From NCBI GenBank assembly GCA_005880805.1, contig VBFZ01000038.1:1-37755 (forward strand): a stretch of 37,755 bases of DNA. The letters run 5' to 3'. A program made the position numbers and the translations under genes. This stretch comes from Chloroflexota bacterium. Its GTDB lineage: Bacteria > Chloroflexota > Limnocylindria > Limnocylindrales > CSP1-4. Each line of letters opens with the position of its first letter. The first letter of the stretch is position 1. Shown piece by piece: positions 2-15,890 of this stretch. The notes under the pieces were generated by a model. That model was not told the origin of the DNA. It ran no database searches and worked only from the letters and a program-made list of their open reading frames with translations.

Positions 2-2803
2 GCCGGCCATCTGGATCGTCGAGCTGATCCGGTTGAGGCCCGGCGTGATGAACGTGACGCCCGCACTGCTGGCGATCGCGACCCGCGCGGTCGGCAGGAA
101 CTCGAAGCCGCGCAGCTGCCCGGCGTCCATCGCGGCCTGGACGGCGCCGCGCAGGGCGGTCGAGAGACCCGTGTCAATGGGAACGTCGGCCGCTCCGCCG
201 GCGAGTCGCGTGACGTAATCCCGCGCGTTGCCGCCCAGCAGCTTCGCGAGCTGGTTCGCCGCGGCCTGCTGGTCGACGACCTGGCCAGTGTGCGCCACGA
301 GGGCCTCGACGGTGCCTCCCGGGGCCATATCGGCAGCGCCCTTGACGGTCAGCTGGCCGAGCACGGAGCCCGTCCCGGCATCGACAGAGATGACCTGGCC
401 GCCGCTCTCTGCGACCAGCTGGTCACCCGTTGAGGTCGCCGACAGGCGCTCGATCGGAGCGTCGACGCTTCCGATCGACACCGGCTCCGGCAGGGTCGAG
501 GCGGGCGTGCCGCTCCTGAGCAGGTCGAAGCTGCTGCTCGTGTCGACCTCGAGGATCGTTCCGTCCTGGGTGCCCACGAACACCCGGTGATTCGTGGTAT
601 CGACGGCGACGGCGCTCGCGCCGGGGACCGCAAACGTGGCGAGGAGGCCCCGGTCGCGCAGGTCGTAGGCACGCAGCTCGTTGCCGGTCGCCACGTAAAG
701 CCTGTCGCCGGCCCGCGCGTCGGGCAGTGTCGGATCGTCGTAGCGAGGCTCGATGGCGGCGTCCCGCACGCCGGTGCCCAGGTCGCTCTGGCCCGTCACC
801 TGGTCGTCGCCGAACCACTCGATCCCGAGGGCCATCGCGTACTTGGCGACGTGCGGGTGCGTGTACTCGTAGATCGAGTGTGGGATGCCGTAGCGCCAGT
901 CCTGCAGGAACTCGGTGCCCGTCCGTGCGTGGTACACCTCGTCGAAGTGCATCTGGAAGGGCTGGTCGAGCCGGAAAAGCCGCAGCCCGAGGGCAGCCAC
1001 AACCAGCACCACGACGATCCAGACGTCGAGCCGATCGAAGCGGCCGGTACCCTCGTCCTCGAGCGCGCCGGACCGATCCGGCCGCACGGGCCGCGCGAAC
1101 AGCCAGCGTCTCAAGCCGACGAACGGACCTGTCTCCGCGCCCGGCCAGATTCCGAAGCCCTTTGCCGGTTCGGTCAGTCCGCCGCTCGGCGGCCGGTCGC
1201 TCGCGATGGGCTCGCTCGCCGACCCGGAGCGGGCTGCCAGGGCGATGGCGGACGGCCTGGGCCCGGCGACCAGCTCTCGATCCCACGGACCGGCCTCCCT
1301 CCTGCCGACCCCAGCGGGCTCAACAGCTTCAGATCGCCACGGCTCGGCCTCGTTGGCCCCATCCGACAGCAGTTCCCGCTCGAGGGCTTCGCGCGCGGGC
1401 CGCCGAAGCTGCAGCATCCCCCAAACGAACGCTACGAAGGCGATGATCGCGATGGCCGTCACGCCGGTCGGCGACCGGAGGGCCTCGCCAAGACCCTGCA
1501 ACGAGCTGAAGGGCGGGCACGCCGAGCGGCCGTCGACGCAGTCGCTGATCCTCGGATTGCCGGGATAGGCGACGACCAGGACCACATACATGTTCGCGAA
1601 CAGCGCGAGACACACGCCGGCGAACGCGACCAGCCAGCGCCACGAGATGACGGCCAGGACGGCGCCGAGCGGAACGAACGGGAACAGGTAGCGCTCGTGC
1701 ACCCGCGTCGGAACGACGAAGAACGCGAGCGCCAGGACCGCCAGCCCGACCAGGATCGATAGCCGATCCGGTTTCAGGCCCACCGCGATGGCGATCGCCA
1801 CGATGCAAACGATGAGGAGCGCCGCGCCTACGAAGACCGCCCAGAACGGCCCGATCAGGAAGGGCGTGCTGCAGCGGGGCGTGATCGCGTCGCAGATCCA
1901 CGCGCCGTTGGCCGCCAGCCCGTTTCGCCCCTGCTCCACGAGGGCCCATGGGTTGAAAGCGTTGACCGTCAGGTACGTGTAGCCGCCGGCCGTCTCCGCG
2001 ACCTGGTGCAGCAGGTCGAAGACCGATAGGCCGAACGGCGCCGACACGACGACCGCGGTGAGCACCCCGGCTGCGGCTGTCGTCAGGACACGGAGTGGGT
2101 GGTGATCGGTGAACGGGCTGTCCGCGGTCCGGGCGCTCGGTCCGTCTCCACCCGCGGCTTCCTGCGCCGGCCCGAACCCGAGCCGGCGGCCCAGAGTCAG
2201 CGGGTCCCAGACGTAACGGCGCAGGACGACGATCCCGACGATCGGGATCAGGATGCCCAGCTGGGGCTTCGTGATGGCCGCCAGGACTGCAAAGACCGTC
2301 GCTCGCTCAGGACGGTCGCGCCACAGCTCCCGGACGCCGAGGAGCATGAACACGACCCCGACCGAGTCGACCTGGCCCCAGATGACGCTGTCGAACCAGG
2401 TGATCGGGTTGAAGACGACCAGCGCGGTCGCCACGAGCCCGGCCCGCTGGCTGCCGCCCAGCTCCCGGACCATCGACCAGGCCAGGTAGCCGAGGGCGAG
2501 GTCGGCCAGCATCGCCGGCACCTTGATGAGGTCGAGCCCGGGCATGGCCTGCTGGACGACGCCCACGAGCCACAGGAAATAGAGGTAGCCGGGCGTGTAG
2601 TCGTGGAAGCCGGGCCGTGTGTAGAACCCGAAAGGTCCGTTCGTCGCGAGGTCGTACGCCCAGCCCCGGAACGACGCGAGGTCGTTGGTGAAGCCGGAAC
2701 CGGGGAACAGGTAGGCGATGAACAGGCGGAGGACGAACCCGAGCCCGAGCACGATGACGATCGTGCTGGCGGCCTCCCGCGTCCTGGTCGTCCGGGTCGG
2801 CAC
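2..2803 (-). CDS. Large membrane glycosyltransferase, partial (3' end beyond window): N-terminal GT-C (GT87/PIG-M-like) module, then a PMT-type (protein O-mannosyltransferase-like) module, then an extracytoplasmic beta-rich insert
   Basis: Not in the ORF track because there is no stop inside the window. Manual translation from GTG at 2803 gives an open frame to the window edge. It contains many TM segments, DYTPGYLYFLW, KPQ, NAFNPW and PTRVHERYLFP (1688-1699 = HERY), then LRLFRLDQPFQMHFDEVYHART (FDE at 938-946) and EYTHPHVAK, which are PMT loop-1 motifs. The start codon is uncertain. Confidence 0.85.
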   Translation of the reverse strand, partial: MPTRTTRTREAASTIVIVLGLGFVLRLFIAYLFPGSGFTNDLASFRGWAYDLATNGPFGFYTRPGFHDYTPGYLYFLWLVGVVQQAMPGLDLIKVPAMLADLALGYLAWSMVRELGGSQRAGLVATALVVFNPITWFDSVIWGQVDSVGVVFMLLGVRELWRDRPERATVFAVLAAITKPQLGILIPIVGIVVLRRYVWDPLTLGRRLGFGPAQEAAGGDGPSARTADSPFTDHHPLRVLTTAAAGVLTAVVVSAPFGLSVFDLLHQVAETAGGYTYLTVNAFNPWALVEQGRNGLAANGAWICDAITPRCSTPFLIGPFWAVFVGAALLIVCIVAIAIAVGLKPDRLSILVGLAVLALAFFVVPTRVHERYLFPFVPLGAVLAVISWRWLVAFAGVCLALFANMYVVLVVAYPGNPRISDCVDGRSACPPFSSLQGLGEALRSPTGVTAIAIIAFVAFVWGMLQLRRPAREALERELLSDGANEAEPWRSEAVEPAGVGRREAGPWDRELVAGPRPSAIALAARSGSASEPIASDRPPSGGLTEPAKGFGIWPGAETGPFVGLRRWLFARPVRPDRSGALEDEGTGRFDRLDVWIVVVLVVAALGLRLFRLDQPFQMHFDEVYHARTGTEFLQDWRYGIPHSIYEYTHPHVAKYAMALGIEWFGDDQVTGQSDLGTGVRDAAIEPRYDDPTLPDARAGDRLYVATGNELRAYDLRDRGLLATFAVPGASAVAVDTTNHRVFVGTQDGTILEVDTSSSFDLLRSGTPASTLPEPVSIGSVDAPIERLSATSTGDQLVAESGGQVISVDAGTGSVLGQLTVKGAADMAPGGTVEALVAHTGQVVDQQAAANQLAKLLGGNARDYVTRLAGGAADVPIDTGLSTALRGAVQAAMDAGQLRGFEFLPTARVAIASSAGVTFITPGLNRISSTIQMAG

Positions 2804-2884
2804 GCTCGTGCCCCGATCGGGCTCACCCGCCGCGGGGCCTGTCAAAGAGCTGCGGCCTCCTGAACGAGCGCTGAGATGCCGCCG

Positions 2885-2890
2885 AGTATA
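2885..2890 (-). promoter_or_regulatory. Putative -10 element (TATACT) for the glycosyltransferase gene
   Basis: AGTATA on the + strand in the GC-rich divergent intergenic region. No clear -35. Confidence 0.4.
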
Positions 2891-3020
2891 CCGTCGAGCC
2901 CCCGGCGACCCGCGTCTCCCGCTCGCTCGCGCCAGCCCCGCCCACCCTCCAGCCCGGCCTCCAGCGCGTCCCGGGCGGCTACGATAGGTCGCCCACAGCG
3001 GCACAGCGGAGGGCACCCGA

Positions 3021-4043
3021 ATGACTGCCACCACCGCGATCACCCGCTTCGTTCCGACTCCCGAACAGTACGCGTGGACGTTCGGCGGCTACGAGCCGGT
3101 CAAGCGCATCCGGCCGGGCGAGCTCCTCGACCTGTTCACCGAAGACGCCTTCGCCGGCCGGATCCGCTCGAGGGACGACCTCCCGAGCAAGTCGATCGTC
3201 TATCCGTTCATCAATCCGCAGACCGGACCGTTCTACGTCGAAGGCGCACAGCCCGGGGACACCCTGGCGATCCACCTGATCGACGTCCGGCCCGCCCGCG
3301 ACTGGGCGGTCTCGACGACCGTCCCGCTGTTCGGATCGCTCACGGGCACGAAGTTCACTCCGACCCTGCAGCCGCCACTGCCCGAGAAGACGTGGGTCTA
3401 CGCGGTCGACCGCGACGCATGCGAGGTGACCTACACCGCGCTTGACTCGGACTACTCGGTCCGGCTGCCACTCGAACCGTTCCTGGGCACGATCGGCGTC
3501 GCCCCCGCCGCGTCAGAGGCGCGCAACGTGCTCGTGCCCGAGGCGTTCGGCGGCAACATGGACACCCCCGAGGCCCGCGCCGGGACCACCATCTACCTCG
3601 GCGTCAATGTCGACGGCGCGCTGTTCTCAATTGGCGACGGCCACTACACGATGGGCGAAGGCGAGGTCTGCGGCGTGGCTGTCGAGGGTGCGATGGACAC
3701 GCTCCTCACCGTCGACGTGATCAAGGGCGAGTACTGCACCTGGCCACGACTCGAAAACGACGAGTTCATCATGGTCGCCGGTTCGTACCGGCCACTCGAG
3801 GATGCCTTCCGGATCGCACACACGCAGCTCATCGGCTGGATCTCACAGGAGACCGGCCTGTCACTCTTGGACACTTACCAGCTCGTGACCCAGGCCTCGA
3901 GCTCGCCCATCGCGAACGTTTGCGACGCGAATTACACGATCGTGGCAAGGATGCCCAAGCGATTCCTGCCCGAACGGGACTGGATGCACGGCGTTCATGG
4001 CCGGTTGCGTGCAATCGCGGAAGAGGCAACGCCTCGCCCGTGA
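3021..4043 (+). CDS. Acetamidase/formamidase family protein
   Basis: NPQTGPFYVEGAQPGDTL, PFLGTIGVAP, GGNMD, FSIGDGH and GEGEVCGVAVE motifs. GGAGG SD upstream. Confidence 0.92.
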   Translation: MTATTAITRFVPTPEQYAWTFGGYEPVKRIRPGELLDLFTEDAFAGRIRSRDDLPSKSIVYPFINPQTGPFYVEGAQPGDTLAIHLIDVRPARDWAVSTTVPLFGSLTGTKFTPTLQPPLPEKTWVYAVDRDACEVTYTALDSDYSVRLPLEPFLGTIGVAPAASEARNVLVPEAFGGNMDTPEARAGTTIYLGVNVDGALFSIGDGHYTMGEGEVCGVAVEGAMDTLLTVDVIKGEYCTWPRLENDEFIMVAGSYRPLEDAFRIAHTQLIGWISQETGLSLLDTYQLVTQASSSPIANVCDANYTIVARMPKRFLPERDWMHGVHGRLRAIAEEATPRP

Positions 4044-4086
4044 AGGCGGGGCCCTCCCGGGCCACCCCTCGCGCGCAGGCCGGGAG

Positions 4087-4117
4087 TTGACGATGACCGT
4101 GTAATCGATTATCACAA
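4087..4117 (+). promoter_or_regulatory. Putative promoter (-35 TTGACG) with overlapping LacI/CcpA-type operator TGTAATCGATTATCA
   Basis: TTGACG at 4087-4092. Perfect palindrome TAATCGATTA at 4102-4111 within a TG..AANCGNTT..CA LacI-like pattern, upstream of the sugar ABC operon. Confidence 0.55.
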
Positions 4118-4345
4118 GCGCGGACAACGGTCCGACTGTGTTCTCGCTCGGGCGTTCGGCTGCCGAGAGATTAGGCGGCGCGTACGCCGCTCGACGATTG
4201 CAGGTGAGCCGACCGACCACACTCCTTTGCCGGAGGGAGTGGCCTCCGAACCTCCGCAGCTGGCGGCTCCTTCGCCATTTTTCGAGCGGTTGACGCGGCG
4301 ACTGGTCCTCCGTCCCCGGGTGTACGGGCGGAAAAGGAGGAGTGA

Positions 4346-5779
4346 ATGAGTCGGTCTCAAGGCCGATCTCTGTGGGTTCTCGCCGTGACGGTGGTATTCG
4401 CCGTCGGAGCCTGTGCTGGGGGAGCGAGCCCGGGCGCAAGTACTGCGGCTAGCGCAGGGGCGAGCACGGCGGCGAGCGCGTCGGCGGCAGCGAGCGGCGC
4501 CAACGCGTCAGCCGTCACCGGCGCGGCATGTGCACAGAACGCCACGGTAGTCAATTTCTGGACGAGCCACACCCCGCCAGATTCGGATGTCATCAAGGGC
4601 ATGGTTGACACCTTCAACCAGGCCAACGCCGACATCTGCGTGAAGATGACGATTGTCAAGGGCAGCGAGACCGACACGTCCAAGCTGCAGACCGCCATCC
4701 GCGGCGGCGTTGCGCCTGACGTGTACGAAGTCGACCGCTTCATCGTCGCCCAGCGCGCCCAGGAAGGCGTCGTGGAGGACATCACCGCCGAAGTCGGCAA
4801 CCTGAAGGACCAGTACCTCGACTTCGCCTGGGCCGAGACGCAGTTCGAAGGCAAAACGTACGCCCTGCCCTTCGACACCGACGCCCGGGCGCTCTGGTAC
4901 AACAAGGACCTGGTCACGGCGGCCGGCGGTGATCTCACCAAGCTCGACATGACCAAGGGTCCGCCGACGATCGCCGACGTGACGGCAATCGCCGACAAGA
5001 TCTCAAAGAAGACGGGCGACAACTACGACGTGATGGGCTGGATCCCGGGTGGACCGGGAGCCGGCGGCCAGCCGGGTGCGTTCGACCAGGGCTGGCACTA
5101 CACGTGGGGCTTCGACTACGGCGGCAAGTTCGCCGATCTCGCAGCCTGCAAGGTGACCCCGACCGATCCGGGCGTCGTGGCCGGCTACCAGTTCATGTAT
5201 GACTGGCAGAAGGCTCACAACCCGACCGCCGTCAGCCGCTGGGTCAGCACAAACAATCCGCCCAACGCACCGGCCGCCTCTAACCCGTTCTGGACCGGCA
5301 AGCTGGGCATGACCATCAGCGGTGACTGGCGCATCGCGGAACAGGCCAAGTACGCGCCGAACGGCCACTATGGCTTCACTTTCATCCCCGTCCCCAAGGC
5401 CGGCGACAAGGCGACGACGTGGGCCGGCGGCTGGTCGATGGCCCTGATCCCGCAGTCGAAGGCCAGGGCGCAGGCAGTCAAGTTCATCGAGTTCATGGCC
5501 GGGCCGGACGGCTCGAAGATCTACACCAAGCAATCGACCCATCTGTCGCCGCTCAAGGCGCTGCAGACCGACGACTCCCTCTACGACCCGCAGCACAAGG
5601 TCTTCCTCGGCTTGCTGCCGACCGCCCTCAGCCGGCCGCCGCTGGCGGTTGGTGCGTACTACTGGGATCAGCTGACCTCAGCCCAGGGCTCGGTCGAGCT
5701 GAACACCAAGCAGCCGCAGGCGGCTCTCCAGGAGGTCCAGGACAAGGTCCAGGCGAAGCTGGACCAGGTCAAGTGCTGA
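4346..5779 (+). CDS. Carbohydrate ABC transporter substrate-binding lipoprotein (CUT1 / family 1 SBP)
   Basis: Signal peptide with lipobox AVGAC, Ala/Ser-rich linker, APDVY, YALPFDTDARALWYNKDL, GKLGMTISGDW, GGWSMALI. Strong SD AGGAGGAG. Confidence 0.93.
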   Translation: MSRSQGRSLWVLAVTVVFAVGACAGGASPGASTAASAGASTAASASAAASGANASAVTGAACAQNATVVNFWTSHTPPDSDVIKGMVDTFNQANADICVKMTIVKGSETDTSKLQTAIRGGVAPDVYEVDRFIVAQRAQEGVVEDITAEVGNLKDQYLDFAWAETQFEGKTYALPFDTDARALWYNKDLVTAAGGDLTKLDMTKGPPTIADVTAIADKISKKTGDNYDVMGWIPGGPGAGGQPGAFDQGWHYTWGFDYGGKFADLAACKVTPTDPGVVAGYQFMYDWQKAHNPTAVSRWVSTNNPPNAPAASNPFWTGKLGMTISGDWRIAEQAKYAPNGHYGFTFIPVPKAGDKATTWAGGWSMALIPQSKARAQAVKFIEFMAGPDGSKIYTKQSTHLSPLKALQTDDSLYDPQHKVFLGLLPTALSRPPLAVGAYYWDQLTSAQGSVELNTKQPQAALQEVQDKVQAKLDQVKC

Positions 5780-5799
5780 CCGCCTAGGACCACGCAGAC

Positions 5800-5830
5800 G
5801 TCGAGGGGACCGGACATCGGTCCCCTCGAC
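5800..5830 (+). terminator. 13-bp perfect hairpin between SBP and permease genes (partial terminator or mRNA-stabilising stem)
   Basis: GTCGAGGGGACCG-GACAT-CGGTCCCCTCGAC. No strong U-tract. Confidence 0.7.
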
Positions 5831-5886
5831 AATCAATACGGAGTTATGACTTTCGGCTTTCGCGTCTCGTCGGGAGAAGGAGAGCG

Positions 5887-6843
5887 ATGACCGCAGCCGC
5901 CACGTCGGTGAAGCCTCGTAGCGTCGGACGCTTCAGGCTCGGGACCCTGGAGCGCCGGAACCTCAAATGGGGGCTGCTGTTCATCAGTCCCTGGGCCTTC
6001 GGGTTCATCGCCCTGGGGGTCTTTCCGATCCTGTACACCTTCTTCCTGAGCCTCACCCGGTATACGGGCTTCCGGAGTCCAACGCTCATCGGGTTCAACA
6101 ACTACACCACGATGTGGAACGACCCGGACTTCTGGAAGGCGGCCTACAACACCCTCTACTACACGGTACTGGCAGTGCCGATCGGCGTGGTCGTGGCGAT
6201 GCTCCTGGCGATCGCCATGAACCAGAAGGTGCGTGAAGTCGCGATCTACCGGGCGATCTTCTATCTGCCCTCGATCCTGCCGGTCTTCGCGATCTCCTTC
6301 GTCTTCGTCGTGTTGCTGAATCCCGGATATGGCCTCGTCAACCTGCTGCTGACGACCGCGGGACTGCCGTCGCCGAACTGGCTCGGCGACCCCGCATACA
6401 CCAAGCTGGCGCTGGTCATGATCGCGCAGCTGGGCGCCGGCCAATGGGCGCTGGTGTTCCTTGCCGGCCTGCGGGGCATCCCGATCGAGCTCTACGAGTC
6501 AGCCGAGATCGACGGCGCTGGCGCGTTTCGCAGGTTCCGGAGCATCACCCTGCCGCTGATGACGCCGGTGATCCTGTACGACATCATCATCGGCCTGTCG
6601 TTTGGCCTGCAGGTCTTCACATCGGCCTACATCCTGACCGGTGGCGCGACCCGCGGAGGTGCGGGCCCGGACAACTCCCTGCTGACGTACGTCTTTTACC
6701 TCTACCAGCAGGCGTTCCAGTTCGGTTCGATGGGCTACGCGGCCGCATTGTCGGTTGTCCTGTTCCTCGCGAGCGTGATCCTCGCCATGGCGGTTTTCCG
6801 CTGGGCGCGAGGCTGGGTCTTCTACGGCGGCGAGGAGGCCTGA
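5887..6843 (+). CDS. Carbohydrate ABC transporter permease
   Basis: LLFISPW..GF, NTLYYTV, YRAIFYLPSIL, EAA loop LYESAEIDGAGAFRRFRSITLPLM. Confidence 0.95.
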   Translation: MTAAATSVKPRSVGRFRLGTLERRNLKWGLLFISPWAFGFIALGVFPILYTFFLSLTRYTGFRSPTLIGFNNYTTMWNDPDFWKAAYNTLYYTVLAVPIGVVVAMLLAIAMNQKVREVAIYRAIFYLPSILPVFAISFVFVVLLNPGYGLVNLLLTTAGLPSPNWLGDPAYTKLALVMIAQLGAGQWALVFLAGLRGIPIELYESAEIDGAGAFRRFRSITLPLMTPVILYDIIIGLSFGLQVFTSAYILTGGATRGGAGPDNSLLTYVFYLYQQAFQFGSMGYAAALSVVLFLASVILAMAVFRWARGWVFYGGEEA

Positions 6844-6844
6844 G

Positions 6845-7762
6845 GTGGCAACCACGGAAGCCGCCCGCCCAATCGCGGTGGCAACCACCCCTCACCGGCG
6901 AACGAGATGGCGCCACGTCCTCACCGGGTCAGTCGTGCCCCGGGTCATCCTGATCGTCAGCTGCCTCGTCTTCCTGGCGCCGTTCTACTGGATGGTCGTG
7001 AGCGCGCTGAAGACGAACACTGAGCTGGCCCAATTCCCGCCCTCGCTGATTCCGGGCGCCTGGGCGTTCAACAACTTCCCCGACGCGATCAACTACATCC
7101 CGTTCGGGCTGTACACCTTCAACTCGCTCGTGATCACGGTCGGGGCGACGATCGGTGCGGTCCTGTCAAACACGTTGGTCGCGTACGGCTTCTCCAGGAT
7201 CCAGTGGCCCGGCCGAAATGCCCTCTTCTACCTCTGCGTTGCCACGATCTTCCTGCCGTACCCGGTGATCCTGGTGGCCCTGTTCGATATCTTCGGCAGG
7301 CTGCCGTCGTTCGGCATCCAGGGCGCAAAGTCCTGGGTGGACACGTTCCTGCCGCTGATCGTGCCGGCATTCTTCGGCAACCCCTTCTACATCTTCCTGA
7401 TGCGGCAGTTCATGCTCGGCATCCCCAAGGAGCTGTCCGACGCGGCCAAGGTCGACGGCGCAAGCGAGCTGCAGACGTTCTGGCGAGTCATCCTGCCATT
7501 GACGCGGCCCGCGGTCATCGTCGTTCTCATCCTCGCCGCGGTCGCGGCATGGAACGAGTTCCTCCTGCCGCTGCTCTACCTTCAGTCGAACGACAAGTAC
7601 CCGCTGGCGGTCGGATTGATCTTCTTCACGAGCGAGCACGACGTTTCGTACAACCTGCTGATGGCCGCGTCGACGCTCATCGTTCTGCCGGTCGTCATCA
7701 TCTTCCTGGTCGCGCAGCGCTTCTTCATCGAGGGGATCACGGTCGGCGGCGTCAAGGGCTGA
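6845..7762 (+). CDS. Carbohydrate ABC transporter permease
   Basis: FLAPFYWMVVSALK, NSLVIT, AYGFSR, IFLMRQF..IPKELSDAAKVDGAS, AWNEFLLPLL. GTG start 1 nt after the previous stop. Confidence 0.95.
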   Translation: MATTEAARPIAVATTPHRRTRWRHVLTGSVVPRVILIVSCLVFLAPFYWMVVSALKTNTELAQFPPSLIPGAWAFNNFPDAINYIPFGLYTFNSLVITVGATIGAVLSNTLVAYGFSRIQWPGRNALFYLCVATIFLPYPVILVALFDIFGRLPSFGIQGAKSWVDTFLPLIVPAFFGNPFYIFLMRQFMLGIPKELSDAAKVDGASELQTFWRVILPLTRPAVIVVLILAAVAAWNEFLLPLLYLQSNDKYPLAVGLIFFTSEHDVSYNLLMAASTLIVLPVVIIFLVAQRFFIEGITVGGVKG

Positions 7763-7770
7763 TCTCCCGC

Positions 7771-8553
7771 GTGCCCGTCGCCGATCCGGTCGTCGCCACG
7801 GTCGTCGTCGCCACCGTCGGGGGACGCGAGATCACGCTCGCGCGCCTCGAGGAGCGGATCGCCGATCTCCGCCGAGGACCACGCGGTCGGCACATGCCAC
7901 CAGACGACCGTGGTCCGAACCTGCGACGCTGGGTCGTCCAGGAGCTCGTCACCGAGGCGGTGATCGTCCACGAGGTCGAGGCGCTCGGGATCGGATCGGG
8001 TTCGGGCGAACCGTCGCGGGAGGGCGTGTCGCCGGCCGCCATCGCCCGGCTGGTCGAGCTGGTGACCGCGGAGGTCACCGTCCCGGACGAGGCGATGCGC
8101 GCCTACTACGGCCGCAACCCGGACCTCTACCAGCGGCCCGAGGCGCGCCGGATCCGTCACGTCGTTGCCCCCGACCGTGAAAGCGCGAAGGAAGCCGCCG
8201 GTCAGCTCGCGAGCGGCGCGCCGGCAGGCGTGGAGATCGAGGTCGAGCTCGGTCAGCTCGTCGGGCCCATGGAGGACATCTTGTTCGCCGCCGGGGCTGC
8301 CGCGGGCGCCGTCGTCGGACCGATGCTGGTCGACGGAGGCTGGAACGTCGCACGCATTGAAGGCACGATTCCGCCGTCCGTCGTACCGTACGACGTGGCT
8401 CGCCCATCGATCGAGGCTGAGCTGCTCATCGCAGCACGCAGGCGGGCGTTCGACGAGTGGCTGGAGCAGCGACGGCACGCTCTGGCCGTCATCGAGCCCG
8501 ACTTCGAGCATCCAGCCCACCCGATGCACGGGGTGCCAAGCCATCGGCACTGA
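7771..8553 (+). CDS. PpiC/SurA-like (parvulin-fold) protein with His-rich C-terminus, resembling M. tuberculosis Rv0649 ('FabD2') homologues
   Basis: The track ORF 7204..8553 is over-extended. A likely GTG start lies at 7771, after the permease stop. Motifs: VATVGGREIT, RRWVVQELVTE, MRAYYGRNPDLY..PEARRIRHVV, GPMLVDGGWNVARIE, ARRRAFDEWLE; ends EHPAHPMHGVPSHRH. Confidence 0.7.
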   Translation: MPVADPVVATVVVATVGGREITLARLEERIADLRRGPRGRHMPPDDRGPNLRRWVVQELVTEAVIVHEVEALGIGSGSGEPSREGVSPAAIARLVELVTAEVTVPDEAMRAYYGRNPDLYQRPEARRIRHVVAPDRESAKEAAGQLASGAPAGVEIEVELGQLVGPMEDILFAAGAAAGAVVGPMLVDGGWNVARIEGTIPPSVVPYDVARPSIEAELLIAARRRAFDEWLEQRRHALAVIEPDFEHPAHPMHGVPSHRH

Positions 8554-8619
8554 CCCACGTTGCGGCGTTCATCGGGCCGGTCGGCGAGCCGGCAAGGCAT
8601 TGACTGGAGGCGCGACTCG

Positions 8620-9549
8620 ATGAAACGAGTGGTCGTGACCGGCGGCAGCGGCAAGGCCGGCCGCGCGGTTGTTTCGGATCTCGTCGAGCACGGCTACGAC
8701 GTCGTCAACGTCGATGTCGTCCCCTCCCCGACGACCGTCGCGCCCTTCCTTCGAGCCGAGCTAACGGATCTCGGAGAGACGATCGAGGCGCTCCGCGGAG
8801 TTGAGACGGTCGTCCACCTCGCGGCAATTCCGGCGCCGCGCATCCGGACCGTCGAGCGGACGTTCGAGATCAACATGCTGAGCACGTACAACGTCTTCAG
8901 CGCCGCCGCGCTGCTCGGGCTGGAGCGCGTCGTATGGGCCTCGAGCGAGACCGTCCTGGGCCTGCCATTCAGCAGGACCTTCGCAGCGAGCCTGCTCGAC
9001 CCCGCTGCGACGCCCGGTCACCAGCCGCGCCCGGACTACGTTCCGATCGACGAGGAGCATCCCCTCCGACCGCACTCCAGCTACTCGCTTTCAAAGGTCC
9101 TCTCGGAGGAGATGGCCCGGCAGTTCGCCCGCTGGACCGGGATACCGTTCATCGGCCTGCGGTTCTCTGCGATCCGCGAGCCGGACGAGTACCGGCGCGC
9201 CGGTTTCGCCGATGCCGCCCGGAATCCCCACGCCGGCGAGTGGAACGTGTGGGGCTACGTCGACGCCCGCGATGTCGCACAGTCCTGCCGCCTGAGCCTG
9301 ACCGCCGATATCACGGGGGCGGACGTATTCATCATCGCTGCCGGCGACACGGCCAGCGAGCGTCCGAACGCGGAGCTCATGGCCGAGTGCTTCGCCGGTG
9401 TGCCGATCCGACCCGGAACGGGCGAGCACGACACGCTGCTGTCGGTCGCAAAGGCTCGCCGGGTGCTCGGGTATGCACCGGCGTACTCATGGCGCGAGCT
9501 CGCGGCCGTGGGCGCAGGGAGCAGTTCAGCCGATCGGGATGGCAGGTAG
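8620..9549 (+). CDS. NAD-dependent epimerase/dehydratase (extended SDR)
   Basis: VVVTGGSGKAG Rossmann motif, VVHLAAIP, WASSE, YSLSK (YxxxK), YVDARDVA. GGAGG SD before ATG 8620. Confidence 0.92.
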   Translation: MKRVVVTGGSGKAGRAVVSDLVEHGYDVVNVDVVPSPTTVAPFLRAELTDLGETIEALRGVETVVHLAAIPAPRIRTVERTFEINMLSTYNVFSAAALLGLERVVWASSETVLGLPFSRTFAASLLDPAATPGHQPRPDYVPIDEEHPLRPHSSYSLSKVLSEEMARQFARWTGIPFIGLRFSAIREPDEYRRAGFADAARNPHAGEWNVWGYVDARDVAQSCRLSLTADITGADVFIIAAGDTASERPNAELMAECFAGVPIRPGTGEHDTLLSVAKARRVLGYAPAYSWRELAAVGAGSSSADRDGR

Positions 9550-9553
9550 TCGA

Positions 9554-12500
9554 ATGGAAATTCTTGGCGCCGAGTCCACCAACCTCTTCATCGGCTCGGA
9601 GGCAGAGCCGCGTCAGCTGGTCCGCATTGCACTGCGCGGCGGCGCGGATGGTCGCGGCGAGACCGGACGCGTCTCGGTCCGTGGCAACGGGCTGCGACCC
9701 GACGAGCCCGTATCGATCGGGCCACTCGAGGCGGGCGCCGACGCGCGCCTGGAGATCGGCGTGGTGGTCGGGGGGGACGCGGCTCCCGGCGACACGATCT
9801 CCGCGGAGGTCGTAGTCGAGGGCGCGGGCGAGCCGGCCCGCCATCGGTTCGACCTCGTCGCCGCCGAGCCCGGCTGGCGCATGTTCATCTACACCGAGAC
9901 CTGGGGCAACGCGATCCAGTACCGCTCGCCATTCCAGCAACCGGGCCTCGCGCTCGTCAAGGCGCACCTCGAGACCGCGCGCCGGGACGCCGACTACAAG
10001 TTCGTGCTGGCGGAGCTCGATTACCTCAAGCCCTACTGGGATGCCTACCCGGAGGACCGCGGGTACATCCGCCAGCTGCTGGCCGACGGGCGCCTCGAGT
10101 TCATGGGCGGCACGTACAACGAGCCGAATACGAACCTGACCAGCGCCGAGTCGACGATCCGGAACGCGATCTACGGAGTCTCCTACCAGCGCGACGTGCT
10201 GGGCGGCGCGCCGGCGACGGCCTGGCAGCTCGACGCGTTCGGGCACGACCCGCAGTTCCCGGGAATCATGGCCGACGCCGGGATCACGGCCAGCTCCTGG
10301 GCACGCGGCCCGTTCCACGAGTGGGGCCCGCACTGGGTGCGCGGCCCGCAGCGGATGCCCGTGCCCGGCATGGCAGCCGGCGAGACGCCGCGTATGCAGT
10401 TCCCGACCGAGTTCGACTGGATGTCACCCAGCGGCCGCTCGCTGCTGACGTGCTTCCAGGCGGCTCACTACTCGGCCGGCTGGTGGATGGACACCGCGCC
10501 GACGCTCGAGGAGGCCGAGCAGCAGGTCCATCGCCTGTTCGACGAGCTGGCCGCCGATGCCGCGACCAGGAACGTGCTCCTGCCCGTCGGGTCGGACTAC
10601 ACGCCGCCGAACAAGTGGGTGACCGCCGTCGCCCGCGACTGGAACCGGCGTTACGTGTGGCCGAAGTTCGTGCCGGCCATCGCGCGCGACTTCTTCGACG
10701 CCGTCCGCGAGGAGCAGGCGCGCACCCGGCGGCCGTTCGTGGTGCAGACCCGCGACATGAACCCGATCTACGAGGGCAAGGACGTCTCGTTCATCGACAC
10801 GAAGCAGGCCCAGCGCGCCGCCGAGAACACCCTGCTGAGCGCTGAGAAGTTCGCGACGATCGCGAGCCTGCTCGGCGCGCGATTCCCCACCGAGGCCATC
10901 GACAAGGCCTGGCGGCAGCTGCTGTTCGGCGCGCATCACGACGGCATCACAGGCTCCGAATCGGACCAGGTCTACCTCGACCTCATCGGCGGCTGGCGTG
11001 AGTCGCTGGAGCTCGGCAAGGCCGCGCTCGACGGATCGCTCCGCTACCTCGGCGATCGGATCGACACGTCCGGCGAGGGGCGGGCCCTTACCGTGTTCAA
11101 TCCGCTGTCATGGCCGCGCAGCGACGTCGTCCGTGCGACAGTCGAGCTGCCGGCCGACTCGGGAACCGGCTTCCAGCTGCATGACCCGAACCGCGGCGTG
11201 GTCCCGTTCGTGATCGAGGCAGCCGAAGACGGCGGGGGAGCTGGAGGACCCGGCCGGGCGACGATCGCGTTCGTCGCGTCGGACGTTCCCGCGCTCGGAT
11301 ATCGCACCTTCCGTCTGATCGAGGGCGACGGTGGAGACGAGACCGCCGCCTGGCAGGCGGTCGAGGCGACACGGATCGAGAACGAGGCCTTCGCCGTGGA
11401 GGTCGACGCCGGGCGCGGGGGCGCCATCACGAGCCTCGTCGAGAAGCGCAGCGGCAAGGAGCTGATCCGGCCCGGAAAGGCGGCCAACGCGCTCGTTGCC
11501 TACCGTGAGTATCCCAACCACCCGCACTTCGGCGAGGGTCCCTGGCACCTCACGCCCGACGGCCGCTCCGCCTCGTCGGAGGCCACCCCAGCGACGGTCG
11601 TGGCAGAGGAGTCTGCGGTAGGACGCCGGATCGTGGTCGAGGCGCCGTTCGAGGGCGGCACGCGCCGGCAGGAGATCACGCTCTGGAACGGCGCGGAGCG
11701 GGTCGAGTTCCGGACCCGCATCGATGACTACGCCGGCCAGGACACGTTGTTCCGGGTCCGCTTCCCGCTCGCGGTGGAGGGCGGAAGGCCAATCTCCGAG
11801 ACGGGCAACGCGGTCGTCGGCCGCGGCTTCGGCTTCCCCGAGATCGACGTGGCCATGGTGCCGTTCACGCTCGATCACCCGGCTTACAACTGGTTCGGCG
11901 TCGGCAACACGGCCCGCGTCGACCTCCTCGACCGGGAGGACGGCGGACGCCCACCCCGCGCCTCGCGCGCGATCGGGATCGCGGAGGTGATCGGGCTTGG
12001 CATCCCCGAGCACGACGAGGCCGTGAGGGCGCTCGCTGTCGCACTGGTCCGGCAGGGCGTCACGTCAACCGTCTCGCGGCACGACGGCCACCGGTACGGA
12101 ATCCTCAACATCGACTCGAACCTGCCCGACGTCCGGATCGCCATCGGCCGCCCCGAGGAGAACCGGTTCGTGGCCGCCGCACTCGAGGCCGCGGGCAAGG
12201 GCTACCGGTCGGAGCTCGATCGGCAGCTGGGCGGCGCAGGCACGGCGCGGGTCTGGATCCCGGCGACGCGGCAGCAGCCCGGCGTCCCCGATACGTTCCC
12301 GGACCTGCGTGGTGCGCTCGACCTGCCGGTGCTCGTCGTCGCGGGTTCGGACCCCGAACACACCATCGAGGCGATCCAGACGCTGACGGCGGACCTCGAC
12401 GACTCCCGCATCCGCGTCGAACAGCCTTCCGAGCTCGACGGTTCGACTGGCCGACTCGAGGACTACACGGTCGCACTGCTCAACCGGGGGCTGCCTGGCT

Positions 12501-14020
12501 TCAACGTCGACGCCGAGGGAACGATGTTCCTGTCGCTGATGCGCGGCTGCAGCGGCTGGCCGTCGGGCGTATGGATCGACCCACCGCGGCGCTCGGTGCC
12601 CGACGGCTCGAACTTCCAGTTCCAGCACTGGACCCACACGTTCGAGTACGCGCTCGTCGCGGGCGCCGGCGACTGGCGCCAGGGCGAGGTCGTCCGCAAG
12701 GGCCACGATTTCAACAACGATCTGCCGGCTCGGGTTTTCGAGGCCCATTACGGATCGCTGGAAGCGACGAAGAGCCTCCTGTCGGTGGAGCCGTCCTCGG
12801 TCGTCCTGACGGCACTCAAGCCCGGCGGCAACCCGCTGGCGAAGATGGCCGACGCCGAGCTCGACCCAGCTCGGGGTATCGCCGCGCGACTCTACGAGTC
12901 CTCCGGACGACCGATGAAGGCGACGATTCGGTCGGCCTGGCCGCTGGAGGACGTCGCCCTCACGGACCTTCTCGAAGCCAACGCGCGGCCGGTCGCGGCC
13001 GGTTCCGGGTCGACTGCGGGCAGCTCCGGGACGGTAAGCGTCGACTTCGAGCCGTACCAGATCGCGACGATCGCGGGCCGTCTCGCCGCCCCCGAGGCCG
13101 GCGCCGGGTCCACGGAGCTGGCGCCCCGAGGAGAGCCGGCTCAGCCGCTCTTCTCGGATTACTGGATGCACAACAAGGGCCCCGCTCCGATGGGCTACCA
13201 GCCACTGGCCGTCCAGATCCGCCCGTGGCTGCTCGCGGCGACCGGCGACGGGGCGATCGGCATTCCGATCAGCGTGGCCTCGGAGCGAACGGATGCGCCG
13301 GTGTCAGGCTCGGTGACCCTCGAGGTGCCGTCCGGCTGGGATGTCAGCCCGGCAGAGCGAGCGTTCCGGCTTGCACCCGGGGCGCATCTCTCGTTCGAGG
13401 CCAGCATCACGCCCGGTCGGGGAACGCGCGCAGGTCGCTACTTCGTGGCGGCCCGCGTGACGGACGACGCGGGTCAGACGCACGAGGACGTGGTCACGAT
13501 CGACTACGGGCCGAGCCACGACGGCGACGGCCGGCGGACGGACGTGACACTGCGCTCGGCGACCCTGGCGCACGCCGTCGAGAAGGCAGTTCGCAACGCG
13601 GCCGGCGACGGCAACGGCGAAGCACCCGGGGAGGAGGCCGCAAGCCCCCAGGCGCTCGGCGGCGAGCTGACAGCCGAAGTCGTGGACCGCGGCCTCGCGA
13701 TCAATGCTGGCGAGCGGGCGCAGCTCCGTGTACGGCTGACCAATCACGCGGCCGCTGAGATCCGGGGCGAGGCCCAGCTCCTCAGCCCGCACGACATCTG
13801 GTCGATCGCCCGGCCCTGGACGCAGGGCTTCCGCGTCGCCCCGGGGGAGGACGCGGTCGTCACCTTCGAGGTCGACCCACCGTTCGACTTCGAGGGCGGC
13901 ACCTGGTGGGCGCTGGTCAAGGTGATGTATTTCGGGCGCCTGATCTATACGGAGTCCGTTCCGGTTGCGGTCAAGGCGACCCAGGCGGCGCGCGCGCTCA
14001 GCCTCGCGGCAGGGCGCTGA
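9554..14020 (+). CDS. GH38 alpha-mannosidase, Rv0648-like, with accessory Ig/NEW3-like domains; N-terminal Zn-binding motif absent
   Basis: KFVLAELDYLKPYWD, GGTYNEPNTNL, AWQLDAFGHDPQFPG (nucleophile Asp), LPVGSDYTPP, QLLFGAHHDGITGSE, VFNPLSWPR. Start at 9554 or 9539. The HxHxDxxW motif is not present (see findings). Confidence 0.9.
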   Translation: MEILGAESTNLFIGSEAEPRQLVRIALRGGADGRGETGRVSVRGNGLRPDEPVSIGPLEAGADARLEIGVVVGGDAAPGDTISAEVVVEGAGEPARHRFDLVAAEPGWRMFIYTETWGNAIQYRSPFQQPGLALVKAHLETARRDADYKFVLAELDYLKPYWDAYPEDRGYIRQLLADGRLEFMGGTYNEPNTNLTSAESTIRNAIYGVSYQRDVLGGAPATAWQLDAFGHDPQFPGIMADAGITASSWARGPFHEWGPHWVRGPQRMPVPGMAAGETPRMQFPTEFDWMSPSGRSLLTCFQAAHYSAGWWMDTAPTLEEAEQQVHRLFDELAADAATRNVLLPVGSDYTPPNKWVTAVARDWNRRYVWPKFVPAIARDFFDAVREEQARTRRPFVVQTRDMNPIYEGKDVSFIDTKQAQRAAENTLLSAEKFATIASLLGARFPTEAIDKAWRQLLFGAHHDGITGSESDQVYLDLIGGWRESLELGKAALDGSLRYLGDRIDTSGEGRALTVFNPLSWPRSDVVRATVELPADSGTGFQLHDPNRGVVPFVIEAAEDGGGAGGPGRATIAFVASDVPALGYRTFRLIEGDGGDETAAWQAVEATRIENEAFAVEVDAGRGGAITSLVEKRSGKELIRPGKAANALVAYREYPNHPHFGEGPWHLTPDGRSASSEATPATVVAEESAVGRRIVVEAPFEGGTRRQEITLWNGAERVEFRTRIDDYAGQDTLFRVRFPLAVEGGRPISETGNAVVGRGFGFPEIDVAMVPFTLDHPAYNWFGVGNTARVDLLDREDGGRPPRASRAIGIAEVIGLGIPEHDEAVRALAVALVRQGVTSTVSRHDGHRYGILNIDSNLPDVRIAIGRPEENRFVAAALEAAGKGYRSELDRQLGGAGTARVWIPATRQQPGVPDTFPDLRGALDLPVLVVAGSDPEHTIEAIQTLTADLDDSRIRVEQPSELDGSTGRLEDYTVALLNRGLPGFNVDAEGTMFLSLMRGCSGWPSGVWIDPPRRSVPDGSNFQFQHWTHTFEYALVAGAGDWRQGEVVRKGHDFNNDLPARVFEAHYGSLEATKSLLSVEPSSVVLTALKPGGNPLAKMADAELDPARGIAARLYESSGRPMKATIRSAWPLEDVALTDLLEANARPVAAGSGSTAGSSGTVSVDFEPYQIATIAGRLAAPEAGAGSTELAPRGEPAQPLFSDYWMHNKGPAPMGYQPLAVQIRPWLLAATGDGAIGIPISVASERTDAPVSGSVTLEVPSGWDVSPAERAFRLAPGAHLSFEASITPGRGTRAGRYFVAARVTDDAGQTHEDVVTIDYGPSHDGDGRRTDVTLRSATLAHAVEKAVRNAAGDGNGEAPGEEAASPQALGGELTAEVVDRGLAINAGERAQLRVRLTNHAAAEIRGEAQLLSPHDIWSIARPWTQGFRVAPGEDAVVTFEVDPPFDFEGGTWWALVKVMYFGRLIYTESVPVAVKATQAARALSLAAGR

Positions 14021-14042
14021 TCGCGCCAGAAACGGAGATGGC

Positions 14043-15017
14043 ATGACGGTTGCATCGAGGACCGAAACCACGTCCGAGCTGAAGATGGGCGTGCTGCCCT
14101 GGGGCCAGTACACCGACTGGCCATCGCTGCAGCGCGCGGGGCAACGCGCGGACGAGCTCGGCTATGACTCACTCTGGACATGGGATCACCTGTATCCCAT
14201 CCAGGGCGACTGGCGGGGACCGATCTTCGAGGGCTACCTGACGCTGACGGGCTGGGCGGGCGTGACCAATCACGTCACGGTGGGGCTCATGGTCGGCGCC
14301 AACACGTTCCGGAATCCCGCGCTCACCACGAAGATGGTGACCACCCTCGACCACATCAGCGGCGGCCGGGCCATCCTCGGAATCGGCGGCGCCTGGTTCG
14401 GGCGCGAGCACGAGGCGTACGGGATCGAGTTCGGCTCAGGGTTCGGCGAGCGGCTCGACTGGCTCGACGAAGCGGTCGACCTCATGCGCCAGATGCTGCA
14501 CCAGGAGGAAGGCACCGCCCGCGGGGTCTACTACCACGCCAAGCGGGTGCGGAACAATCCACCGCCCCTGCAGGACCATCTGCCAATCCTCATTGGCGGC
14601 GACGGGGAGAAGAAGACCCTCCACACCGTCGCAAAGTTCGCCGACGCCTGGAACACGGGAGGCAGCGTCGAGTTCGTGCGGCACAAGGACGAGGTCCTTC
14701 GGCGCTGGTGTCAGGAGGTCGGCCGCGACGAAGCGGAGATCGAGCGGACGCTGGGGCTGGGCCTGGTTCTCCTCCGGGACGATCCCGCGGAGGCGCGACG
14801 GGTCGAGGCCGCCATCCGGAAGCACCATCCCGGCTACGACGAGGACGGCCGCGTCGGAACGCCTGAGCAGATCGCCGAATCGCTCGTCCCGTACGTCAAG
14901 CTCGGCTTCCGGCACATCTTCTTCGACCTGCCGGCGCCCTTCGACCAGGAGACCCTCGAGCGCTTCGTCGGAGAGGTGAAGCCGATGCTCGCGGAGAAGG
15001 CGCTCGCAGCTCGCTGA
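14043..15017 (+). CDS. LLM-class (luciferase-like) flavin/F420-dependent oxidoreductase
   Basis: GYDSLWTWDHL, FEGYLTL, FRNPAL..KMVTTLDHISGGRAILGIGGAW, PILIGGDGEKKTL, VGTPEQIAE. GGAG SD before ATG 14043. Confidence 0.9.
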   Translation: MTVASRTETTSELKMGVLPWGQYTDWPSLQRAGQRADELGYDSLWTWDHLYPIQGDWRGPIFEGYLTLTGWAGVTNHVTVGLMVGANTFRNPALTTKMVTTLDHISGGRAILGIGGAWFGREHEAYGIEFGSGFGERLDWLDEAVDLMRQMLHQEEGTARGVYYHAKRVRNNPPPLQDHLPILIGGDGEKKTLHTVAKFADAWNTGGSVEFVRHKDEVLRRWCQEVGRDEAEIERTLGLGLVLLRDDPAEARRVEAAIRKHHPGYDEDGRVGTPEQIAESLVPYVKLGFRHIFFDLPAPFDQETLERFVGEVKPMLAEKALAAR

Positions 15018-15092: not shown

Positions 15093-15890
15093 ATGGACGA
15101 GCGCAGCCCCGACGCGAGCGTGACCAGCGCGCGTGTGCCCCGCCTGTCCTACTTCTTCCCGGCCCACAACGAAGAGGCCAACGTCGAGGCGCTCGTGCAC
15201 GAGGCGCTCGAGACGCTACCGCGCCTGGCGGGGCAGTTCGAGGTGATCGTCGTCGACGACGGCTCGCGTGATGCAACCGGCGAGATCGCCGAGCGCCTGG
15301 CGGCCGCGAACCCGCAAGTCGTCCGTGTCGTGCATCACGCCACGAACCTGGGCTACGGGGAAGCCCTCCGCTCCGGGCTGCGCGCCTCACGTTTCGAGCT
15401 CGTGGGCTTCACCGATGGTGACCGCCAGTTCCGGGTCCTCGATCTGGGACGGCTCGTCGGGCGCCTTCTCGAGCCCGATCGCCCGGATGCCGTCGTCGGC
15501 TACCGGCTGAAGCGAGCCGATCCGCCGATCAGGACCCTGTACGCGCGCGCCTACCGGCTGGCGAACCTCGTCTTCTTCCGGCTGACCGTCCGCGACGTGG
15601 ACTGTGCATGCAAGCTGTTCAGGCGTGAGGCGCTCGAAGGGGTGCGCGTGGAGTCGGGCGGTGCCTTTTTCTCGGCCGAGCTGCTGATCAAGCTGCGGGC
15701 TCGCGGTGCGCGCATCGCGGAGGTCGGCGTGCCGCACCATCCGCGCACGGCGGGATCTCCGAGCGGTGCGAGGCCCGCGGTCGTGCTGCGGGCTGTGAAG
15801 GACTTCTGGTCGCTGCGCTTGCGCCTCTGGGCGGCGCGGGCGAGCGCGTTGCGGCGCGGGCTGCCGATCCTCTCGGAGGACGCCGGCTAG
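15093..15890 (+). CDS. GT2 family glycosyltransferase (polyprenol-phosphate-mannose synthase / DPM1-like)
   Basis: FPAHNEE, VIVVDDGSRDAT, NLGYGEALRSG, FTDGD (DxD), DVDCACKLFRRE, ELLIK. No TM segments. Confidence 0.9.
   Translation: MDERSPDASVTSARVPRLSYFFPAHNEEANVEALVHEALETLPRLAGQFEVIVVDDGSRDATGEIAERLAAANPQVVRVVHHATNLGYGEALRSGLRASRFELVGFTDGDRQFRVLDLGRLVGRLLEPDRPDAVVGYRLKRADPPIRTLYARAYRLANLVFFRLTVRDVDCACKLFRREALEGVRVESGGAFFSAELLIKLRARGARIAEVGVPHHPRTAGSPSGARPAVVLRAVKDFWSLRLRLWAARASALRRGLPILSEDAG

Follow-up and report, generated by a model that had tools for sequence, protein, structure and literature searches.

For a long time, bacterial protein O-mannosylation was attributed to one enzyme alone, the protein mannosyltransferase Pmt. 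We analyzed a stretch of 37,755 bases (the window) that forms the start of contig C19 in a metagenome-assembled genome (MAG) of a Chloroflexota bacterium of the class Limnocylindria (2.75 Mb in 266 contigs, 85.5% complete). At its beginning, cut by the contig start, lies a gene whose product is probably the machinery of bacterial protein O-mannosylation in single-chain form. The protein joins an N-terminal GT-C glycosyltransferase module to a GT39-type PMT module, and a seven-bladed beta-propeller is spliced into the first external loop of the latter. A single open frame thus holds all three part types of the mycobacterial Pmt holo-complex, in this genome as in others of the class. The separate parts and a two-module fusion are known from the literature; no description of the fused GT-C/PMT/propeller architecture was found in the literature searched.

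The gene occupies the minus strand, and the window carries its 5' part of 948 codons (2..2845) within a long frame (2..3043) that is seen only once open reading frames (ORFs) running off the source are listed. The original prediction placed one open frame at 2-2803. That frame is real, but it is on the minus strand, starts at a TTG (2845-2843) and runs off the contig; position 2803 is an internal GTG encoding Val15. The accompanying remark that the ORF track misses the gene is true but trivial, because the track lists complete ORFs and this one runs off the contig end. A Shine-Dalgarno-like AGGAGG is found on the same strand about 10 nt upstream of the TTG (2861-2856), and the N-terminus read from this start, MTGPAAGEPDRG, agrees with that of the homologue P0009. 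The GTG at 3043 was rejected as a start: homologues lack any equivalent of the 66 upstream codons, which are rich in Arg and Gly, and a frame from there would also enter the divergent formamidase gene that starts at 3021.

The remainder of the gene was located with tblastn of full-length homologues against the genome and lies at the start of contig C67 (locus L002), where positions 3..2636 are open for 877 codons and carry the PMT and PMT_4TMC domains. The transmembrane (TM) core of the PMT module, which the original prediction had left to be sought in the rest of the gene, is thus present. The first 21 nt of C19, reverse-complemented, equal the first 21 nt of C67 exactly and in frame, and the protein letters at the join read …STIQMAG / TIQMAGGATGL…, giving a joined protein of 1,819 aa. 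A same-genus orthologue (L010) is encoded in one uninterrupted frame collinear with the joined protein, and the two inserts align over all 405 residues with zero length difference.

Judged by its relatives, the fused gene is real and not a chance ORF, because a word-indexed protein search returned at least 749 homologues (E<=0.001), the strongest of them with E-values of 1e-200 to 1e-264. The top 120 share 43-55% identity in their best local alignment and are mostly 1,700-1,775 aa long, a length of about 1,775 aa being the upper limit of this search. Their sources are MAGs of Chloroflexota and Candidatus Limnocylindrales, and the databases call them "phospholipid carrier-dependent glycosyltransferase" or "hypothetical". 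More than 80 of the homologues are full-length (1,690-1,775 aa) and show the same continuous frame in independent assemblies.

The fused architecture is conserved across the class. A survey of 121 Limnocylindria genomes gave a match in 101, and in three of the five families (f1, f2 and f4) the N-terminal module and the start of the PMT module share one stop-free frame of 1,400-2,300 aa. Family f3 yielded weak matches to the N-terminal module, some within frames of 1,000-1,600 aa. Approximately 268 other Chloroflexota genomes held only stand-alone relatives of this module, in frames of about 280-940 aa. A contig scan with one genome per species, saturated by Limnocylindria-type MAGs, found at least 590 relatives; the best 80 of these loci are all from MAGs, and apart from a few with other binning labels they are assigned to Chloroflexota, Limnocylindria or Limnocylindrales. 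The original prediction had allowed that the architecture might already be common and annotated. It is common, in hundreds of MAG proteins held in databases, but its annotation is limited to generic names; both a fusion of GT87 with GT39 and a propeller that partners Pmt have been described before. As a side observation, the genomes of family f2 measure only 1.0-1.4 Mb, yet they keep a compact fused version of 1,400-1,480 aa, an example of which (L007, G011:C2 ~7026-11084) has a 315-aa insert and stands directly beside a GT2 gene.

The N-terminal module (residues 1-485; 1391..2845, minus strand) was modelled with AlphaFold2 from 57 homologues as an all-helical bundle of about 12 TM helices (pLDDT 88, pTM 0.89). 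Its closest fold in the Protein Data Bank (PDB), as determined by Foldseek, is yeast ALG6 (6snh, E 9e-7, TM-score 0.67/0.69), followed among the leading matches by glycosylphosphatidylinositol (GPI) mannosyltransferase I, PIG-U and ALG3, with ArnT and oligosaccharyltransferase/PglB lower. PimE is also matched (9dm7_A, E 1e-4, TM-score 0.48/0.61), but is outranked by ALG6 and GPI mannosyltransferase I. The best matches are all GT-C enzymes that use lipid-phosphate sugars. At the level of sequence families, Pfam GT87 (PF09594) exceeded its cut-off of 25 bits only when the genome was searched in six frames, with 27.4 bits over residues 83-203; it is unlisted by hmmscan of the protein, and precomputed GT87 assignments exist for only a few homologues. 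Pfam Alg6_Alg8 (PF03155) reached 14.5 bits (E 0.018), under its 25-bit cut-off, and the likeness to ALG6 is at the fold level only. The "GT87/PIG-M-like" label of the original prediction holds as a description of fold, while the best fold is that of ALG6 and the GT87 match is marginal.

Several residues of this module are invariant in ten orthologues from three families that share 38-68% identity: D55, D82 with the following Y-x-P-G-Y, Q158, D160, K193-x-Q and P-T-R-V-H-E-R-Y-L (379-387). D55 (2681-2683) stands at the start of helix 53-69, the first helix after TM1; D82 is within HDYTPGY, and the KPQ (193-195) and HERY (383-386) motifs are encoded at 2261-2269 and 1688-1699. Between families, the N-terminal module and the PMT core are about equally conserved, with 35-38% and 39-41% identity respectively. 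In PimE, the catalytic Asp58 is located at the tip of juxtamembrane helix 1 (JM1), and K195 and H322 bind phosphate. Stand-alone enzymes of this general type are a separate feature of the genome: eight further loci match GT87, on contigs C40, C30, C125, C120, C92 and C142 (L013-L021), and six of these clearly exceed the cut-off. With nine GT87-like loci in all, stand-alone PimE-like GT-C enzymes form a sizeable family beside the single PMT locus.

The segment that follows (residues 486-605; 1031..1390, minus strand) is a linker of 120 residues that varies in length and is poorly conserved: across 82 full-length homologues its identity is 12-27% and gaps exceed 30%, as compared with 55-75% identity in the modules on either side. 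It is flanked on both sides by Arg-rich segments. The original prediction of a disordered cytoplasmic linker of about 110 residues is supported by these gaps and by the low conservation. The linker is presumably disordered and probably cytoplasmic, about 12 TM helices preceding it after an N-in start.

The second module belongs to the PMT family and is divided by the insert into residues 606-679 and approximately 1086-1545. On the C67 part, Pfam PMT (PF02366) scored 39.5 bits (cut-off 22.7), PMT_4TMC (PF16192), which is present in homologues too, 42.6 bits (cut-off 32.4) and PMT_2 24.9 bits. PMT and PMT_4TMC together define an 11-TM core (PMC12331936). The family profile matches the yeast Pmt4 and Pmt1 chains in the PDB, and the fused gene is the sole PMT locus of the genome. 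Of this module, the window encodes TM1 (606-624) and the initial part of external loop 1 (809..1030, minus strand). Eleven residues after TM1, within FDEVYH, is D635-E636 (938-943), which is nearly invariant (>=90%) in 57 full-length homologues; THPHxAKY (662-669) is nearly invariant in homologues as well. As far as sequence can assign it, the GT39 identity is carried by PMT_4TMC and this DE motif, and not by Pfam PMT alone. An NCBIfam scan of the window fragment of the protein matched no family. The central claim of the original prediction, two GT-C modules in one polypeptide, is borne out by these family matches together with the model and fold matches of the N-terminal module, and the motifs it named are all present (KPQ and HERY in the first module, FDEVY 634-638 and THPHVAK 662-668 in the second, and LYVATG, HRVFVGTQDG and VISVDAGTG in the insert).

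MIR domains are a feature of eukaryotic PMT subfamilies only, and none appeared in Pfam scans of both protein halves. This is compatible with the bacterial PMT branch, because actinobacterial PMTs likewise lack MIR domains (bioRxiv 10.64898/2026.07.15.738315). Beyond PMT_4TMC, the protein continues into a C-terminal extension of about 270 aa (residues 1546-1819; L002 1812-2633) with about six TM helices and no Pfam match, in which the motifs ARD.RRF, YPN..ALPLP and YQG.LPTY..FQF are conserved.

The insert extends over about 405 aa (residues 680-1085), beginning 44 residues after the DE motif in the first external loop, and it separates the part of the loop that bears DE from the TM helix that comes next (W-R-x-P-G-V). 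Its first 269 residues (680-948) are encoded in the window (2..808, minus strand) and the remainder on C67 (3..431), so that the ">250 aa" of the original prediction was right as a lower bound. The insert lies within the PMT domain: when it is deleted in silico, one uninterrupted Pfam PMT match (profile positions 3-198) spans the junction. The orthologous insert of P0009 was modelled by AlphaFold2 as a seven-bladed beta-propeller (pLDDT 93.5, pTM 0.91), in keeping with the large beta-rich domain that had been proposed. In the model the seven blades are four-stranded, and the first two and last two strands form one shared blade, an arrangement that suits a domain spliced into a loop. More than 1,400 PDB folds match it in Foldseek, led by seven-bladed WD40 propellers (TM-score up to 0.75). 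Pfam detected just sub-threshold PQQ_2 in the insert (23.5-23.8 bits). The three families share the insertion site, with inserts of 315-405 residues whose identity falls to 24-26%.

The DE motif and the insert are predicted to lie on one side of the membrane, the outer one, because the stretch from DE to insert contains no hydrophobic segment. A cytoplasmic insert was considered and rejected on the same ground; the sequence THPHVAKYAMALGIEWFG is short and amphipathic. In the model of the P0009 insert, blade 4 is followed by an excursion of three helices (approximately residues 850-935; 41..298, minus strand). It is present in family f1 only and absent from the f2 and f4 inserts. With its excursion part, the family profile matches the pedestal region at the N-terminus of a class-B penicillin-binding protein (4ovd_A 69-169, E 1.2e-7) and, more weakly, SpoVD; with a single sequence the pedestal match weakens to E 0.4.

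The closest parallel to this protein is a complex. Mycobacterial Pmt (Rv1002c/ML0192c, GT39) has three predicted partners with pull-down support (bioRxiv 10.64898/2026.07.15.738315). As described in this 2026 preprint, Rv0051/ML2687c is a GT87-like GT-C protein that lacks catalytic residues yet is needed for Pmt function, Rv3212/ML0810c is a periplasmic propeller of eight blades that is modelled above the DE site and proposed to recruit or gate acceptor polypeptides, and Rv1209/ML1065 is a small DivIVA-like bridge. The Limnocylindria protein resembles this complex in its GT39 core, its PimE/GT87-type GT-C module and its presumably extracytoplasmic propeller at the catalytic loop, and both systems are without MIR domains. 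It differs in having all three parts in one polypeptide, with the propeller spliced into external loop 1 and not provided as a separate membrane-anchored subunit. The Limnocylindria propeller has seven blades and no sequence relatives detected outside the family, whereas Rv3212 has eight blades. Its N-terminal module keeps conserved acidic and basic residues and looks catalytically intact, while Rv0051 is described as catalytically dead. In place of the proposed DivIVA-like bridge there is a covalent linker, and the C-terminal bundle of about 270 aa is additional.

Other known systems share smaller portions of the architecture. The same preprint describes a Paenibacillus GT87-GT39 translational fusion (UniProt V9WAU2), which likewise has GT87-type and GT39 modules in one chain; this protein, compared by the preprint's description only, is from another phylum and no propeller insert is mentioned for it. 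PimE (PDB 9dm7/9dm5) shares the GT-C fold and has comparable positions for an Asp at the start of JM1, a Lys near 193-195 and a His in a late loop; it has no sequence-level match to the N-terminal module, which is longer, has extra loops, is fused, and is better matched in fold by ALG6. Yeast Pmt1-Pmt2 and Pmt4 (PDB 6p25, 9e61) have the same PMT and PMT_4TMC core, with DE in the first lumenal loop. In Pmt1-Pmt2, as may be the case here, two GT-C bundles are paired and a soluble domain caps the active site. The yeast cap is a MIR beta-trefoil between TM7 and TM8 as opposed to a loop-1 beta-propeller, and the Limnocylindria partner bundle, unlike that of Pmt1-Pmt2, is not a GT39 paralogue. Although yeast ALG6 (GT57, 6snh) is the best structural match of the N-terminal module, it acts with dolichol-phosphate-glucose on the N-glycan precursor, and nothing here points to that substrate.

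A candidate source of the lipid-linked sugar donor is encoded farther along the window and, in relatives, at the locus of the fused gene itself. A GT2 gene (15093-15890, plus strand) encodes a polyprenyl-phosphate glycosyl synthase-like protein of 265 aa, which shares 76% identity with the GT2 close to the fused gene of locus L003; in the PDB it is related to ArnC, dolichol-phosphate-mannose synthase and GtrB. In families f2 and f4, the GT2 divergently adjoins the fused gene, either directly or with a TMEM260-like GT-C gene between them; in f1 it adjoins with genes for a 455-aa protein and a TMEM260-like GT-C in between. In the window this adjacency is broken by a block (3021-15017) that encodes the formamidase, a sugar ABC importer, a PpiC-like protein, an epimerase, a GH38 alpha-mannosidase of 1,540 aa with an NPCBM-associated domain, and a luciferase-like oxidoreductase. 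The intervening genes of L003 (6981-9928) encode a TMEM260-like/PMT_2 GT-C of 527 aa, a putative second O-mannosyltransferase-type enzyme at the relatives' locus, and the 455-aa protein, which is without any family match.

Downstream of the fused gene and convergent to it is a cluster encoding a GT4, a PHP_C protein, two acyltransferases and inositol-3-phosphate synthase (Ino1), at 2991-8496 of L002 on C67 and at 15251-21373 in L003; the version found in relatives also holds PIP synthase. The best NCBIfam match of both acyltransferases is phosphatidylinositol mannoside (PIM) acyltransferase. The cluster looks like a phosphatidylinositol/PIM-type glycolipid pathway in this Chloroflexota class, a label we infer and give as "PIM-like" only, because all NCBIfam scores in the cluster fall under the curated (equivalog) cut-offs.

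Taken as an O-mannosylation machine, the protein would operate as follows. The PMT module would take mannose from polyprenyl-phosphate-mannose, probably made by the syntenic GT2, and transfer the sugar to Ser/Thr residues of exported proteins at the outer membrane face through the predicted catalytic D635-E636. The propeller would most likely sit over this active site and recruit or gate acceptor polypeptides, a role proposed by likeness to the separate Rv3212 in mycobacteria and to the MIR domains of eukaryotic PMTs; that the insert selects substrates, as the original prediction had it, we likewise infer. The N-terminal module, tethered by the cytoplasmic linker of about 120 residues, probably packs beside the PMT module, by likeness to Rv0051 with Pmt or to Pmt2 with Pmt1. 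It probably forms an additional active site and extends O-mannose or a glycolipid by another sugar, as suggested by the invariant Asp at the start of the first juxtamembrane helix together with the invariant Lys and His.

Several observations weigh against this reading, and they concern each part of the protein. For the N-terminal module, a single-sequence phmmer search of the PDB found no relatives, giving chance matches to a viral fusion glycoprotein (E 1.2), and a profile of this module alone retrieved neither PimE nor ALG6 from the PDB, just chance matches to G-protein-coupled receptors. The correspondence of D55, K193 and H383 with PimE D58, K195 and H322 is a positional analogy and not an alignment, because these sequence and profile searches aligned nothing to PimE. 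Pfam PMT also has matches in ArnT-type genomes, among the controls in those of E. coli and B. subtilis, and is not specific to protein O-mannosylation, and the insert-deleted PMT core gave zero PDB matches in single-sequence phmmer. The propeller was modelled on the P0009 insert, which is 48% identical, the protein's own insert being split over two contigs. When stand-alone relatives of the propeller (228-726 aa) were sought with a profile, almost all the sequences retrieved were split or partial copies of the same family; with seven blades against eight and without such relatives, the propeller would be an analogue of Rv3212 and is not a demonstrated homologue. Since the GT87-like partner in mycobacteria is reportedly without catalytic activity, the model does not require the N-terminal module to be active. 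Finally, the members of this family are known from the genes of uncultured organisms.

The activity of the N-terminal module separates the versions of the single-chain O-mannosylation reading. If both GT-C modules are active, the protein would be a two-active-site O-glycosylation holoenzyme in which the propeller captures the exported polypeptide, the GT39 site primes it and the N-terminal module extends the glycan. We advance this as a tentative possibility; the corresponding claim of the original prediction, that one enzyme primes and elongates, is plausible but unproven. A less likely but serious alternative, by our assessment, is that the N-terminal module is instead a non-catalytic partner of the Pmt2 or Rv0051 kind, which dimerises with the PMT module and helps to hold the acceptor in an enzyme that only primes. 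Such a role has a precedent in Rv0051/ML2687c, described as necessary in spite of its missing catalytic residues, and would agree with the marginal Pfam matches of the module and with sequence searches that reach no characterised enzyme. On the other hand, D55, D82, K193-P-Q and PTRVHERY remain invariant across families at 38-41% identity, the module is as conserved as the PMT core, and the conserved positions agree with the sites of the catalytic Asp and the phosphate-binding Lys and His of PimE.

A different function altogether, for which we see a small probability, is that the protein mainly builds an envelope glycolipid or lipoglycan (PIM- or lipomannan-like), with the N-terminal module acting in a PimE-like manner on a phosphatidylinositol mannoside from the neighbouring cluster and the PMT-like module and propeller acting on another lipid or polymer. 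The PIM-like cluster is convergent to the gene here and in f1 and lies within 4-8 kb of it in f4, GT87 enzymes such as PimE act on PIMs, and the genome has nine GT87-like loci. Against this, the cluster is on the opposite strand and so must be transcribed as a unit of its own, the compact f2 version lacks it within its 20-kb locus, and its NCBIfam matches are all sub-threshold. PimE (GT87) extends protein O-mannose chains besides making AcPIM5 (reviews), and the synteny does not discriminate between the two roles because this enzyme serves both. The combination of PMT, PMT_4TMC and DE, moreover, is the signature of a protein O-mannosyltransferase. The remaining alternative, an assembly or binning artefact in which a missed frameshift joins two genes or the contig join is wrong, might be suspected from the fragmented MAG and a gene split over two contigs but is effectively refuted by the full-length homologues in independent assemblies, the frames without internal stops in genomes of three families, the exact in-frame 21-nt overlap, and a joined insert equal in length to that of the same-genus orthologue.

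Limnocylindria are abundant bacteria of soil and freshwater, and the single-chain O-mannosylation reading implies that they probably glycosylate exported proteins, with a phosphatidylinositol-glycolipid-like gene cluster beside the fused gene. That a class of a distant phylum encodes the three part types of the Pmt complex as one polypeptide provides independent evolutionary support for the complex as a unit. If both modules are active, the fusion would be gene-fusion (Rosetta-stone) evidence that GT39, a GT87-like GT-C protein and a propeller form an old functional unit, and this O-mannosylation unit would extend well outside the Actinomycetota. The single chain would also be a practical object for cryo-electron microscopy and for mutagenesis of each site.

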